This document shows positions 1-60,559 of a stretch of 64,000 nt of DNA, in pieces. This DNA comes from an uncultured Verrucomicrobiae bacterium. GTDB taxonomy: Bacteria > Verrucomicrobiota > Verrucomicrobiia > Limisphaerales > UBA11358. Location: positions 177,939 to 241,938 of the forward strand of contig CAVXQV010000009.1 of NCBI GenBank assembly GCA_963764035.1. Direction: 5' to 3'. Each line of letters starts with the position of its first letter. The stretch's first letter is position 1. The notes below the pieces were generated by a model that saw only the letters and a program-made list of their open reading frames with translations, searched no databases and was not told the origin of the DNA. Position numbers and translations under genes: made by a program.

Positions 1-182
1 CGCGTTCGAGGTGGGTCATAATGAAACCCGATTTATGGACGCGGGGAGTGTGCGGCGGAATAGTGGTGGCGTCAATTCTGCCGTGCCGTTTCGGCAAATT
101 CCGCCGGGCCGGAGACCGGCGCTCCTTTTGTGTGTTTCGTGGTTTCCCATCCGTGTCCAAGGGCGAACCCGTAATCCGTGGT

Positions 183-593: not shown

Positions 594-829
594 GACGTGA
601 TTCTGCACCGGAAATGGGGTGAAGGCAAGATTTAGAAAGTCTAAAGGCTGAAGGCTAAAGGCTGAAATCCGTGTCCATCCGCGTATAGCGGCGTGGCCTA
701 CGCAAAATGGCAAAACCCCCACGTGGCACCGCCGCCACGCGGCTTTACTCGGCGTCCATCCGTGGTCAAAGCCGCCGGTTTGTCCTGAAGCGGGACACTT
801 TCTGTCCCGAAAGACACAATCCAAGTTCT

Positions 830-1102
830 GTGTCTATAAGCACAGAGGCTGTGTTTGCAAGCACGGTCATTTTGTTTGCAATCAGAAAAAGCGTGTTTCC
901 AAGCACAACGTCCGTGTTCGCAAACAGAACGTTCGTGGCTATAAACAACGTGGCCCTGTTTGCAACCAGAGTCGTCGTGTTTGCCTTCACGATGTTCGTG
1001 TTTGGAAACACCGGAACCGTGTCGCGAATCACAACAACTTTGTTTGCAGGCAGAAACAGCGTGTTCGCAATCCGGCCGTTTGTGTCGGCAAACAAACCGC
1101 TC
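830..1102. repeat. Degenerate tandem array, 13 x 21 bp, palindromic core GTGTTTGCAAACAC plus 7 variable nt
   Basis: Units in exact 21-bp phase from 830 (gtgtctataagcacagaggct, gtgtttgcaagcacggtcatt, ttgtttgcaatcagaaaaagc ...) to 1082 (gtgtcggcaaacaaaccgctc). Confidence 0.9.
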
Positions 1103-1359
1103 CCGGCCCCCGTTTAATGACGATTCGTGGATCGTGATTTTTGCCGGGCGGGGAACCCCTTTTTCCGGTTTCCCTTCTTTTAAGCCTGCCGTCCCACTTG
1201 TATTAGAGACTAATGAAACATTTATTTCAGAAATTATTTTCTTATGACTTTGGCATCCCTTTCGCTTTAGTGATTCCTGTTAACGGAAACGACGTGAGTT
1301 CGCCGGGTGGCCTCCAACGGATGTTTCCATTTCATCAACAATTCAACAAAAGCTGAATT

Positions 1360-2007
1360 ATGAAAAAAACCACAGTAAGTATGGCATATCATCGGCTGCC
1401 GCCGCAGATGGTGGTTTCGGTCCTCGGAACCGTCATCACGGGAATGAAGGACAAGGCGGATCTTCCCAATCCGCCCGTGCCCCTCGAACCCGCGGTGCCG
1501 CCGGATCCGAATGCACCCGTGGACCTGACCACGCGCAAAGCACGGCTGGAAGCCGCGATTGAAGCGTCGGCGGTCGGCGGACAGGCGGATACGGCGGCCA
1601 AGAATGATGCGCTCGAGTTTGCCCTCGACGGATTAGACCAGGAGGCGTTTTACGTCCAACTGGTCTATCGTTACAACGTCACGGGCGTGCTCTCCACCGG
1701 CTTCGTGCCGGCGAGCACCAACCGCGCGCAGGTGGCATTGGACACTCCCGCCATCAGCAGCATTGACTCGGACGTGCCCGCGCAACTGACGTTGCACGTG
1801 ACGCCCATAGACAATGCGTATGGCTACGAGGTGCAGACGCGCACCGGCACGGGCGAATGGACCACGGTCCTGTATTCGTCCGCGGCGCGCTCGATCGTCC
1901 TGCCCGGATTGACCTCCGGCACGGCGACCGGCGTGCAGGTGCGGGCGCTGGGCGGCCTCACCGGCTACAGCGCCTGGAGCATGGCCGTCACGCGGTTCGT
2001 GCCCTGA
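1360..2007 (+). CDS. Hypothetical cytoplasmic protein, N-terminal helical region plus C-terminal fibronectin type III domain
   Basis: 215-aa ORF with no signal peptide. The C-terminus YGYEVQ...W...LPGLTSGT...VQVRALGG..GYSAWS..V is FN3-like. Followed by a terminator. Confidence 0.8.
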   Translation: MKKTTVSMAYHRLPPQMVVSVLGTVITGMKDKADLPNPPVPLEPAVPPDPNAPVDLTTRKARLEAAIEASAVGGQADTAAKNDALEFALDGLDQEAFYVQLVYRYNVTGVLSTGFVPASTNRAQVALDTPAISSIDSDVPAQLTLHVTPIDNAYGYEVQTRTGTGEWTTVLYSSAARSIVLPGLTSGTATGVQVRALGGLTGYSAWSMAVTRFVP

Positions 2008-2026
2008 TGCAAATGCCAGAACAGAG

Positions 2027-2056
2027 AAACGGCGCGTCGCAAGACGCGCCGTTTTT
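2027..2056 (+). terminator. Rho-independent terminator, possibly bidirectional
   Basis: aaacggcgcgtc-gcaa-gacgcgccgttt followed by a T-tract, between convergent genes. Confidence 0.8.
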
Positions 2057-2081
2057 TGTTGTGGAGCGTCGGCAGCGGTTT

Positions 2082-29839: not shown

Positions 29840-29965
29840 CTGACGGCTGCTGGTCAGTGACCGAGGAGCGCTGGCCAGTCACGGACAAGCGCTGGTCGGT
29901 GACCGAAGAGGGCTGGTCAGTGAGGGACAAGGAGCAATCAGAGACGGACCGGGAGCCATGGCAGC
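29840..29965. repeat. Degenerate 21-bp tandem array (about 6 units), dyad core GGTCAGTGACC
   Basis: ctgacggctgctggtcagtga / ccgaggagcgctggccagtca / cggacaagcgctggtcggtga / ccgaagagggctggtcagtga / gggacaaggagcaatcagaga / cggaccgggagccatggcagc. Confidence 0.75.
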
Positions 29966-54682: not shown

Positions 54683-55435
54683 TCAGTTTTCAGCACTTTC
54701 CAGGTCGTCCTCGTCGAAGCCGATCACCGGTTTGCGATAGATTTCGAAATGTTCCGGCTCTTTTTCGGGGTCACGGTAAAAGCGGCCCATGACTTTCCGC
54801 TGTTGCTGACGCCAGTCTGCGCCCAGCGCTTCCCAGCCGCCGGCCCAGATGAAATGGAGTTTATCCAGCCGGGCGATGCGTTCGGCGGAGAGGGTTCCGG
54901 CCTGACGTGCCTTGCGCTGGGCCTGCACCCAGATGCCCAGCGCGGGCTGTTCGGGCCAGGGACACGGCACATAAGAATGGCCGAATCGCTGTAGGAAGAG
55001 CAGGAGATCGTCATACTTGATGTCCCATACCTCGTCCGGACCCGGGTCGCTGATCGTGTCATCAAGGACTGCGACATCTGCGGTCGGGACCTCTGCGGTC
55101 GGGACGTCTCCGGTTGGGACGTCTCCGGTTGGGACATTTTCGGTCACAATATTCAATCCAAGACTTCTCCGCATGTTCAGCGAACATGGGAACCCGGCGG
55201 CTTCGAGCCGTTGCAGACGGTCCGGGGGCATGGTGCCCGCAGCCATGCGCGTCCGTTGCCGGGTGGCCCACCATGCCAGCGATTTATGTTCAGGGTCCGT
55301 GATCGGGATGTGGAAATGGCCGTGCTGCCGTTTGAACCCCAGGAGTCTGGCAAAAAACGATTCCCAAGCGGCATTGCTGGCTGCTCTCCGGGTTTGCGCG
55401 GCGTGCGCCGGCACCGGCTGGTCTGACGGAACCAT
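54683..55435 (-). CDS. Stand-alone helicase-associated (HA) domain protein, two HA repeats
   Basis: WESFFARLLGFKRQHGHFHIP...LAWWATRQR...RLQRLEAAGF and WDIKYDDLLLFLQRFGHSYVP...LGIWVQAQR...ERIARLDKLHFIW. Confidence 0.8.
   Translation of the reverse strand: MVPSDQPVPAHAAQTRRAASNAAWESFFARLLGFKRQHGHFHIPITDPEHKSLAWWATRQRTRMAAGTMPPDRLQRLEAAGFPCSLNMRRSLGLNIVTENVPTGDVPTGDVPTAEVPTADVAVLDDTISDPGPDEVWDIKYDDLLLFLQRFGHSYVPCPWPEQPALGIWVQAQRKARQAGTLSAERIARLDKLHFIWAGGWEALGADWRQQQRKVMGRFYRDPEKEPEHFEIYRKPVIGFDEDDLESAEN
55073..55147. repeat. 5 x 15-bp coding tandem repeat (VPTGD/VPTAE linker)
   Basis: gacatctgcggtcgg, gacctctgcggtcgg, gacgtctccggttgg x2, gacattttcggtcac. Confidence 0.8.
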
Positions 55436-59160: not shown

Positions 59161-59479
59161 AATTTTAACCCCGGATGAAAACGGATTTACGCGGATGAAA
59201 AATCAAATCACTGTTGGTTGACACTTCAATACTCTGCGAACCGGCTGCGATGCTGTAAAGTATTTAATCGCCGCCGGCTTCCAAAACGGTTTCCCGCCGG
59301 TTTTGGGGAAGGCAATTAAAATCACTTTCCTGACAAAATAGGGAGAGCCGCATTTGGCGGAACCGTTCACCATGTCCGCCATCAAGCTTCCAAAACTTCC
59401 CTCACCTCCCGCGGGGTCCTCCGCGTGGACGGGTGAATTCCGCCGGCTTCCCGGCACGTTCCCACCGGCATTTAACGAT

Positions 59480-59772
59480 TTCGCCGGAGGCATTTTCGCG
59501 TTGCCGGAGGCCGGCCGGATTTTCCCGGATTCATTCCACGGTTTCCCGGAATCATTTTGCGGGTTCCCCAAACCATTCCGCGGTTTCGCGGAATCATTGG
59601 ACGCGTTCGCGGAACGATTCCGGGAGTTCGCGGAATCATTTGACGGTTTCCCGGAACCATTCCGGGCTTTCGCGGAATCATTTTTAGAACCCGAAAAATC
59701 ATTCCGGGAGTCCGAAAAATCATTTGACGGTTTCGCGGAATCATTCCGCGAACCCGCGGAATGGCCTGGAAA
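59480..59772. repeat. Degenerate tandem array, about 14 x 21 bp, dyad core CGCGGAAT-C-ATTCCGCG
   Basis: 12 in-phase units from 59521 (tttcccggattcattccacgg, tttcccggaatcattttgcgg ... tttcgcggaatcattccgcga, acccgcggaatggcctggaaa) plus two decayed units upstream. Confidence 0.92.
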
Positions 59773-59863
59773 CCCCGCTTTTTCGCAAAAACCGCCCAAA
59801 AATGCCAGTTACCACCCCTTTCCCTTTCCGTAACCACAACACTGACCAAAAAAAGACAAAAAA

Positions 59864-60559
59864 ATGAAATCCGATCCAATACAAAAAAAAGACCTGGCCT
59901 TTGCCGGCCAGATGAACACGTTCAAAACCAACATCCCCACCTACGCGACCGTGCTGAAACTGACCACCGACCAGGTGTCCGGCCAGGCGGCGGACGCGGC
60001 GGCGTTCGACTACTGGGTGAAGTGCATGAACATCATGCACAAGGACGCGCAGCAGTTCACGAACTGGAAGAACCTGTTGCGCGACGGCGGCACCCCGCCC
60101 TCCGGCGGAGCGCCGGGCGTGCCGGTGCTGCCCGACCCGGTGCCGGACGTGGCGCCGGGCATCGAGGCGCGTTTCCGCGCGCTGGTGCAGATCACCAAGA
60201 ACAGCACCAGCTACAATGTCGGCATCGGCGAGGCATTGGACATCGAGGGCGCGCAACAGAACCCGCCGGATTACAGCACCTTGATGCCGGTGCTGACGCT
60301 CCGCATCAACGGCAACCGGGTGGAAATCGGCTGGGGCTGGCAGGGCTACGCCGCCTATCTCGACCAGATCGAACTTCAGGTGGATCGCGGCGACGGCAAG
60401 GGTTATGTGGTGCTGACCTACGACACCACGCCCGGCTACACCGATCCCACGCCCTTTCCCGCAACCCCGGCCAAATGGATTTACCGGGGGATTTACCGCT
60501 TGAACGAGGCGCAGGTCGGCCAATGGAGCAGCCCGGTGAGCATCACCGTGGGCGGCTGA
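59864..60559 (+). CDS. Hypothetical cytoplasmic protein, N-terminal helical region plus C-terminal FN3/Ig-like domain
   Basis: 231 aa, no signal peptide. Helical N-half and Pro-rich segment, then VEIGW...IELQVDR...YTD...WIYRGIY...VGQWSSPVSITV. Confidence 0.82.
   Translation: MKSDPIQKKDLAFAGQMNTFKTNIPTYATVLKLTTDQVSGQAADAAAFDYWVKCMNIMHKDAQQFTNWKNLLRDGGTPPSGGAPGVPVLPDPVPDVAPGIEARFRALVQITKNSTSYNVGIGEALDIEGAQQNPPDYSTLMPVLTLRINGNRVEIGWGWQGYAAYLDQIELQVDRGDGKGYVVLTYDTTPGYTDPTPFPATPAKWIYRGIYRLNEAQVGQWSSPVSITVGG

Follow-up and report, generated by a model that had tools for sequence, protein, structure and literature searches.

Subirana and Messeguer (2021; PMC8161180) described in Bacillus many species-specific families of non-coding 20–21-nt repeats, which share a constant length and are unrelated in sequence. 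In the sections of that article concerning these repeats, the length is equated with two helical turns and an unknown protein polymerising on the DNA is suggested. A second arrangement is that of the plasmid systems parC/ParR, parH/ParG, parS/omega and sopC/SopB, in which tandem or inverted repeats precede the gene of a small protein, and this protein covers the repeats and acts as a repressor at its own promoter, as set out in the relevant part of PMC5016525. Here we analyzed 64,000 nucleotides of an uncultured Verrucomicrobiae bacterium (assembly GCA_963764035.1, contig CAVXQV010000009.1, positions 177,939 to 241,938; hereafter the window), in which a row of phased 21-bp dyad units (array 1) precedes the gene of a 215-amino-acid (aa) protein starting at position 1360 (the 1360 protein). 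This array-gene module is real, widespread and undescribed in the papers searched, and its mechanism is one that we infer. A literature search for the module returned nothing relevant other than the bare constant-length repeats mentioned above, subscription journals being mostly outside its coverage, and the passages of PMC6749651 consulted make no mention of Verrucomicrobia.

The units of array 1 follow one another without gaps, and their identity at a lag of 21 bp is 0.56 as compared with 0.25 ± 0.03 in 1000 shuffles (maximum 0.34). The original prediction of 13 units in exact 21-bp phase, the last of them 258 bp from the ATG of the gene, was thus borne out. Its description of the consensus as a perfect 14-bp palindrome stood in part: the column profile is dyad-symmetric, with a score reached by none of 300 column permutations, but GTGTTTGCAAACAC is an idealised consensus with which the units agree at 9–13 of the 14 positions, and no unit in the window matches it in full. 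The 11th base of GTGTTTGCAAACAC represents a three-way tie among A, G and T across the 13 units.

The array and the gene travel together. Outside this genome, a period-21 array was found upstream of the gene in 81 of the 96 homologue loci for which the upstream sequence extended to 700 bp or more (mostly from genomes titled Verrucomicrobiota or Acidobacteriota, plus metagenomes) versus 4 of 89 in the downstream control, and in 57 of 74 loci of same-genus genomes, which are partly the same loci. Identical proteins were removed before the later statistics, reducing 143 to 125. Furthermore, the whole block comprising the array and the gene occurs a second time in the genome with different flanks (Table 1). 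Altogether, these results agree with the proposal that the array and the gene form a modular unit. The two copies of the gene (1360–2007 and G000:C10:7459-8106) show no difference in 648 positions, while the arrays differ at 17 of 274. It was also noted that array, spacer and flanks of the duplicate differ by 3–12% though the gene is identical, for which gene conversion or assembly collapse could be responsible.

The assembly (4.56 Mb, 70% complete) contains 181 period-21 arrays, whereas every other period from 15 to 39 is represented by 0–4, and 103 of the 181 are dyad-symmetric at p<0.05. There are 36 further regions with a period of 41, 42, 63, 83 or 84. The 172 arrays of at least 4.4 units fall into 116 core families, and 63 of them point to a recurring cargo gene, namely 27 of the type encoded at 1360 (helical plus FN3), 8 of ArsR-like helix-turn-helix (HTH) genes, and 28 in six other families, in which the members scanned had no Pfam match. 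The ArsR-like genes, of a known DNA-binding fold, follow their 8 period-21 arrays in the same orientation. In this genome, 29 of the 35 matches to the profile of the 1360 family have a phased array upstream, and two of the six without one are pieces of a single broken gene. Conservation in 64 arrays is mirror-symmetric about the dyad axis with a peak 3 bases out, albeit the axis was chosen for symmetry and the pattern is therefore partly built in. Thus, the layout is a genome-wide system of more than 60 array-plus-gene pairs, the motifs of which are mostly different.

One such pair is the second module of the window, where the same layout had been claimed to recur at 59480–60559 with a different core. 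The array, the layout and the unrelated core were all confirmed (identity of 0.59 at lag 21 and 0.64 at lag 42), but no homology between the 231-aa protein and the 1360 protein was detected (BLASTP E 1.3; HHalign probability 7%). The family of the 231-aa protein comprised 663 matches, with 6 array-linked paralogues in the genome. Neither an exact sigma-54 motif nor an exact end box (see below for both) was found in 59201–59870. A third, short period-21/42 dyad array of about 6 units with the core TCAGTGAC was observed at 29849–29956 without a recognised cargo gene.

The 1360 protein was modeled by AlphaFold2 (AF2) from a 38-row alignment with a predicted local distance difference test score (pLDDT) of 91, giving helices in residues 9–112 and a beta sandwich in residues 132–213. 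The latter resembles FN3 domains (best Z 13.1, root-mean-square deviation 1.9 Å, 91 aligned residues), and Pfam fn3 matches 70 of 89 homologues, though not the 1360 protein itself. The predicted division into a helical N-terminal half and an FN3 C-terminal half is therefore well supported. On reading the sequence, no hydrophobic h-region is seen, in line with the original prediction that a signal peptide is absent. The family has a median isoelectric point (pI) of 9.0 among 78 representatives. PADLOC 2.0 assigned no defence family to six of seven cargo proteins, and the seventh, the ArsR-like protein, matched generic HTH models only.

Statistical evidence for a link between the protein and the array comes from their covariation. 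Across 90 loci, the median core similarity is 0.95 at protein identities above 90% and 0.54 at 70–80%, and falls to a background of 0.30 below 40%, as anticipated by the original prediction that the period is kept while the core diverges. Such decay is expected from linkage alone, and close proteins with changed cores are therefore the informative cases. The proteins of loci L100 and L102 are 93% identical and follow near-identical leaders, and their arrays are unrelated; five of their 13 differences lie at residues 9, 12, 13, 14 and 15. The two core classes nearest to the 1360 gene differ diagnostically at residues 2, 4, 6, 116 and 131. We then considered 40 nearest-neighbour pairs in which each sequence was used once. 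Divergence at residues 2–16 rose as core similarity fell, with the rest of the protein allowed for (partial r -0.51, permutation p 0.001), and so did that at residues 9–16 (r -0.47) and at residues 5–16 with leader and synonymous divergence held (r -0.53, p 0.0004), as compared with r -0.06 for leader DNA alone. Excess divergence at residues 2–16 distinguished 17 core-changed from 18 core-kept pairs (p 0.0002; five intermediate pairs left out), and a ratio test on identity-matched pairs (9 versus 14) gave p 0.005. The suggestion that the core may diverge with its cognate protein thus gains statistical support. A change of motif is accompanied by a change in residues 2–16, and binding of each array by its own protein is therefore likely.

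Between array 1 and the gene there is a predicted sigma-54 promoter directed toward the gene. Scored against the sigma-54 consensus, its -24 GG and -12 GC at 10-nt spacing are kept in all 12 aligned loci. At the far end of array 1 lies a 17-bp palindrome with a related half-site pair (Table 1), which we regard as a candidate site of a bacterial enhancer-binding protein (bEBP), the activator type of sigma-54 promoters. The generalized form of this end box, TGTCY-N7-RGACA, occurs at 33 exact sites in the genome, of which 18 are no more than 160 bp away from the end of an array (0.8 expected); one of these is inside a gene fragment. The helical phasing of the distance between box and promoter in 16 loci is uninterpretable, because half of the loci form a single clade and the fit is equally good for several trial periods. 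The gene for sigma-54, rpoN, was found in 19 of 20 relatives and was not found in the assembly studied here, which is 70% complete. A conserved promoter pointing into array 1 was not established, and no sigma-70 match was obtained there. RNA contigs of close relatives, recovered in four studies from peat and wetland libraries, cover the gene. In three of the studies, contigs 97% identical to locus L094 have their first base where 1293 would be, and in the fourth a contig begins at 1293; in one run an adapter abuts that base. We take this common end as a weak hint that the transcript excludes the array. No RNA contig covers the array or spacer, even at L094 as the nearest locus, but holes in contigs are no proof of silence.

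Table 1. Features of the two modules, in coordinates of the 64,000-nucleotide window
Feature	Position	Strand	Basis or remark
Whole module	739..2072	+	97.2% identical duplicate on another contig (G000:C10:7396-8727), different flanks
End box TGTCC-N7-GGACA, 17-bp palindrome	781..797	.	Motif scan; related half-site pair at 803-816
Array 1, 13 x 21-bp units with degenerate 14-bp dyad core	829..1101	.	Most likely non-coding
Conserved CTTGTATTAG motif followed by AT-rich tract	1197..1245	.	Alignment; going by the consensus, possibly a DNA-bending (IHF-like) site
Predicted sigma-54 -24/-12 promoter TGGCA-N8-GC, toward the gene	1251..1266	+	Predicted start near 1277
Leader hairpin	1285..1328	+	Weak fold, no two-sided covariation
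Gene of the 215-aa protein, which has a strand and a short helix at the N terminus, followed by a helical bundle and an FN3 domain	1360..2007	+	Open reading frame, AF2, structure and Pfam searches
Codons 2-16, candidate specificity element	1363..1407	+	Covariation statistics: divergence tracks array-core change
Terminator-like hairpin followed by T run, near right end of duplicated block	2026..2057	+	Stem assigned to the minus strand in one scan
Array 2, about 14 x 21-bp units with unrelated core, 42-bp higher order	59480..59773	.	
Gene of the 231-aa protein of a different cargo family	59864..60559	+	

From the sequence comparisons, we consider the chances about even that array 1 is a row of double-stranded DNA sites for the cognate protein encoded downstream; this protein would cover the array of its own module and control the promoter of its own gene. 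Each 14-bp dyad would be occupied by a dimer of the 1360 protein, contacting it through the strand and short helix at the N terminus, and with a dimer at every second helical turn all of them would face the same side of the DNA; that the protein binds directly, dimerises and cooperates, and with what outcome, are steps that we infer. Autoregulation would be the most economical outcome, with the array possibly acting as a sink. In the copy studied here, the coated array would sit between the candidate activator box (781–816) and the sigma-54 promoter (1251–1266), and would therefore gate the loop between activator and polymerase and set the protein level. The gene-less arrays of the same core would be further sites in trans. 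Modules would spread by block copying, and array and protein tip would then drift together into orthogonal pairs. A wider version, which we put forward tentatively and with more doubt than belief, is that bacteria carry a great many satellite-protein pairs, orthogonal to one another and diversifying. In these, a new helical plus FN3 DNA-binding fold would use about 15 N-terminal residues to choose a 14-bp palindrome, the protein size would set the two-turn lattice, and the protein would coat its own and the gene-less same-core arrays as addressable nucleoprotein filaments. On this wider version, the polymerising protein proposed for constant-length bacterial satellites would be identified.

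Several observations weigh against binding of the array by its own protein, or against particular steps of it. The gating of a loop is not general, because many modules lack the sigma-54 motif and the box: among 92 FN3-type loci, 39 have the exact motif and 23 a distal box, and in the 35 loci with other cargo the exact motif is absent. The end box is distal in the copy studied here but between array and promoter in one four-copy family, and the RNA end at 1293 is 16 nt downstream of the predicted sigma-54 start, although contigs cannot map a start. As for the covariation, window 141–160 also reached p 0.02, alone among the other windows in a test of 14 overlapping ones, and the pairs share deep ancestry. 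No N-terminal residue stands out singly, the best single columns being elsewhere, and the cores of L002 and L008 are similar in spite of differences at 10 of 15 N-terminal positions. Synonymous divergence in codons 2–20 showed a borderline trend (r -0.26, p 0.05), and the 5' codons may therefore hitch-hike with the array. The 1360 protein itself is acidic (pI 5.1) and contains no known DNA-binding domain. Its N-terminal half has no family or solved-structure match in Pfam/NCBIfam, ESM Atlas, PDB sequence and fold searches (the best ESM Atlas hit, at 0.88, is an unnamed entry, and PDB sequence matches are confined to the FN3 region), which is no evidence of a new fold. Neither a ribbon-helix-helix (RHH) nor a ParB/HTH domain had a Pfam/NCBIfam match in 89 members, and the fold-search results were filled by FN3, the N-terminal half not having been searched alone. 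Finally, 109 of the 172 arrays (about 60%) are without recognised cargo in this 70%-complete assembly, and only 30 of them have a core family in common with a cargo-linked array.

Alternatively, the array may be a cis-regulatory platform or phased spacer read, mainly by its geometry, by a shared host factor such as a sigma-54 activator or a nucleoid protein, with the gene as regulated cargo. Sigma-54 motifs lead away from 15 of the 172 arrays and into 2 (1.9 expected each), the end box is found at no more than one mismatch beside 32 of the 172 (4.2 expected) and is common to unrelated cores, and the genome contains at least 9 strong matches to sigma-54 activators. Cargo genes of unrelated folds are arranged in this way too, and arrays without a gene equal those linked to one in length and homogeneity (median of 13.7 units in gene-less versus 13.3 in gene-linked arrays, p 0.76). 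DNA has 10.5 bp per turn, from which 21 bp would follow as the shortest unit of whole base pairs with which an expanding array stays in helical phase. All of these fit a shared reader. Nevertheless, the 116 core families far exceed the activators found, and a reader of geometry leaves both the dyad-symmetric, array-specific cores and the covariation with residues 2–16 unexplained. We thus deem this explanation unlikely, albeit the strongest of the competing ones.

Repeat RNAs that bind and titrate a protein are known, as in CsrB and the type III antitoxin RNAs, and the original prediction had listed a hairpin-rich RNA among the possible products of the array. A transcript of the array might be a repetitive RNA that forms duplexes and so binds the protein or titrates it, and recognition of RNA would account for the covariation with the protein tip equally well. 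Either strand of array 1 gives a strong fold (z -4.9 and -3.4 as compared with dinucleotide shuffles), and on the gene strand G.T mismatches exceed A.C mismatches (875 versus 714; 57 versus 35 arrays), a mild excess that is the one result in favour of RNA. However, shuffling the order of the units in 12 orthologues gave folds as good as those of the real order, and among 120 arrays z>2 was reached by 7 on each strand. Covariation of dyad partners within a unit was absent as well (0.554 within versus 0.563 between units), Rfam returned only sub-threshold matches for the array, and the periods are multiples of two DNA turns. A position-specific fold-back of the RNA, suggested by the rod-like minimum-free-energy structure, was rejected on the unit-order shuffles and the missing within-unit covariation. 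With a selected fold unsupported, an RNA product of this kind appears improbable.

The patchy occurrence of the family could suggest a selfish or near-neutral mobile cassette, the arrays of which arise from slippage and conversion with the 21-bp period as a by-product. The family is accessory: among genomes of the same genus 38 of 121 have it, and across the phylum 3 of 151. No match was found in 72,556 plasmid records, and viral contigs contributed one fragmentary match among 100 pattern matches. Blocks are duplicated into new flanks, and orthologous arrays differ by 0.20–0.22 per site, close to the synonymous rate of the gene (0.20–0.26). On the other hand, the differences are unevenly distributed, amounting to 0.00–0.11 in core columns and 0.3–0.5 in linkers, and the displayed orthologous loci retain 13–14 units and a gap of 252–259 bp to the gene. 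Neither a transposase, a recombinase nor a conserved neighbour was detected when the 453 neighbouring open reading frames of 111 loci were clustered (best shared neighbour, 6 of 111). A selfish or near-neutral cassette is, in our judgement, quite improbable.

On the strand opposite to the gene (766–1095), there is an open frame with the heptad pattern [VL][LIFV]ANTxx, replaced by V-x-[ED]-[ILF]-T-K-S in the sister core class, and the frame is open in all the displayed orthologues of both classes with a coiled-coil-like hydrophobic pattern; its coding potential was therefore tested. That the array encodes this heptad-repeat peptide is highly improbable in spite of heptad-pattern open frames on the opposite strand of 23 of 125 oriented arrays (12.8 expected), since pN/pS is 1.07 in nine class-A and 0.81 in four class-B arrays whereas the gene has 0.48 and 0.39, and variation in the present core class is lowest at third positions. 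Moreover, open frames are equally frequent on the two strands (87 versus 87; about 60 and 57 expected, both above the null), and 21 of the 125 arrays have no open frame in any of the six. Past the end of the array, the tail changes frame among orthologues, and the periods 41 and 83 are not multiples of 3. A heptad coding sequence on either strand was rejected on the pN/pS of about 1 and the missing strand bias of open frames; such a sequence would have been fatal to the original prediction, and array 1 is most likely non-coding.

Some further observations concern the modules and their surroundings. Stand-alone ArsR-like HTH genes (L192–L196) lie behind 8 arrays of period 21 and 3 of period 41/42, and each of these arrays has a core unlike the others. 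A family of 308–322-aa proteins with a C-terminal FN3 domain (L203, L204; G000:C6:49122-49513, C9:387556-387971, C10:105547-106021) always comes after 41-, 42- or 83-bp arrays and is weakly similar to the 215-aa family (HHalign 40%). The idea that a doubled helical module goes with a doubled period is thus partly seen in all five of these proteins; an internal repeat was not detected in their 5-row alignment, and a 205-aa member that follows a 41-bp array runs counter to it. A gene-less 20-unit array at G000:C13:313994-314420 carries the array-1 core and the array-1 distal end sequence in another context. A bulged hairpin right after the predicted start was noted in most sigma-54-type modules (53 loci) with little shared sequence, and no common leader RNA structure was found across these 53 loci (empty alifold result, median z -1.1). 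Adjoining the module of array 1, a small unannotated gene on the minus strand (183–596) has no Pfam match and has paralogues beside two other arrays. The left end of this module is flanked by 7-bp repeats (AAGGCTG) and dispersed ATCCGTG-type repeats (637–666, 120–190, 660–770); similar repeats at the borders of many copies may mark insertion sites. A 15-bp tandem repeat of 4–5 copies was seen at 55073–55145. Records titled Bifidobacteriaceae or Bifidobacterium carry loci L001, L005, L015, L017, L027 and L068; four of the Bifidobacterium-titled loci group with Verrucomicrobiota proteins in a quick protein tree made for display only, and the titles may be wrong.

Repressors of the ArsR/SmtB type are autoregulated through one or two operators. 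Some modules of the present layout likewise carry an ArsR-like HTH gene (Pfam HTH_5/HTH_20), but as stand-alone genes behind 8–13 phased sites, and the 1360 protein is unrelated to them. Sites of NtrC-type activators have a 5-7-5 dyad geometry. The module of array 1 resembles sigma-54 promoters with upstream activator sequences in its -24/-12 motif, the 17-bp dyad box upstream and the AT-rich tract between them, and no paper on the TGTCY-N7-RGACA box was found in the literature search. According to the section of PMC4641369 on this point, most sites of enhancer-binding proteins are within 100 nt, whereas the box here is about 470 bp upstream, beyond the 273-bp array.

The plasmid centromere/operator systems introduced above share with the module a repeat array upstream of the gene for a binding protein, here a candidate one, and the N-terminal strand may be the recognition element as in their centromere-binding proteins. 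Membership in the partition systems fails because the motor is lacking: no motor NTPase (ParA, ParM or TubZ) or conserved neighbour was found among the 453 open reading frames of the 111 loci, and the neighbours in the window gave no partition-NTPase Pfam match above the cut-off. The analogy to centromeres made in the original prediction is accordingly not supported. The modules also differ from plasmid centromeres in being chromosomal and in numbering more than 60 per genome, and from the centromere-binding proteins of plasmids in the helical bundle joined to FN3.

A further likeness is to the Bacillus repeats of PMC8161180, to which the arrays correspond in their constant length, variable sequence and non-coding nature. 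A dyad core, a linked gene, a promoter and a cognate protein are not reported in sections 3.3 and 4 of that article; the present arrays are set apart by their dyad cores, linked genes, predicted promoters and candidate cognate proteins. Constant-length, sequence-variable bacterial repeats are, as presented in those sections, a published puzzle without an assigned protein. The repeats found here are accompanied by a candidate reader, by a predicted promoter and an end box, and by a segment of 15 residues that would predict specificity. If each protein binds its own array, an FN3-containing fold would have a role in DNA binding, and a single soil-bacterial genome would hold a natural library of more than 100 orthogonal protein-site pairs.
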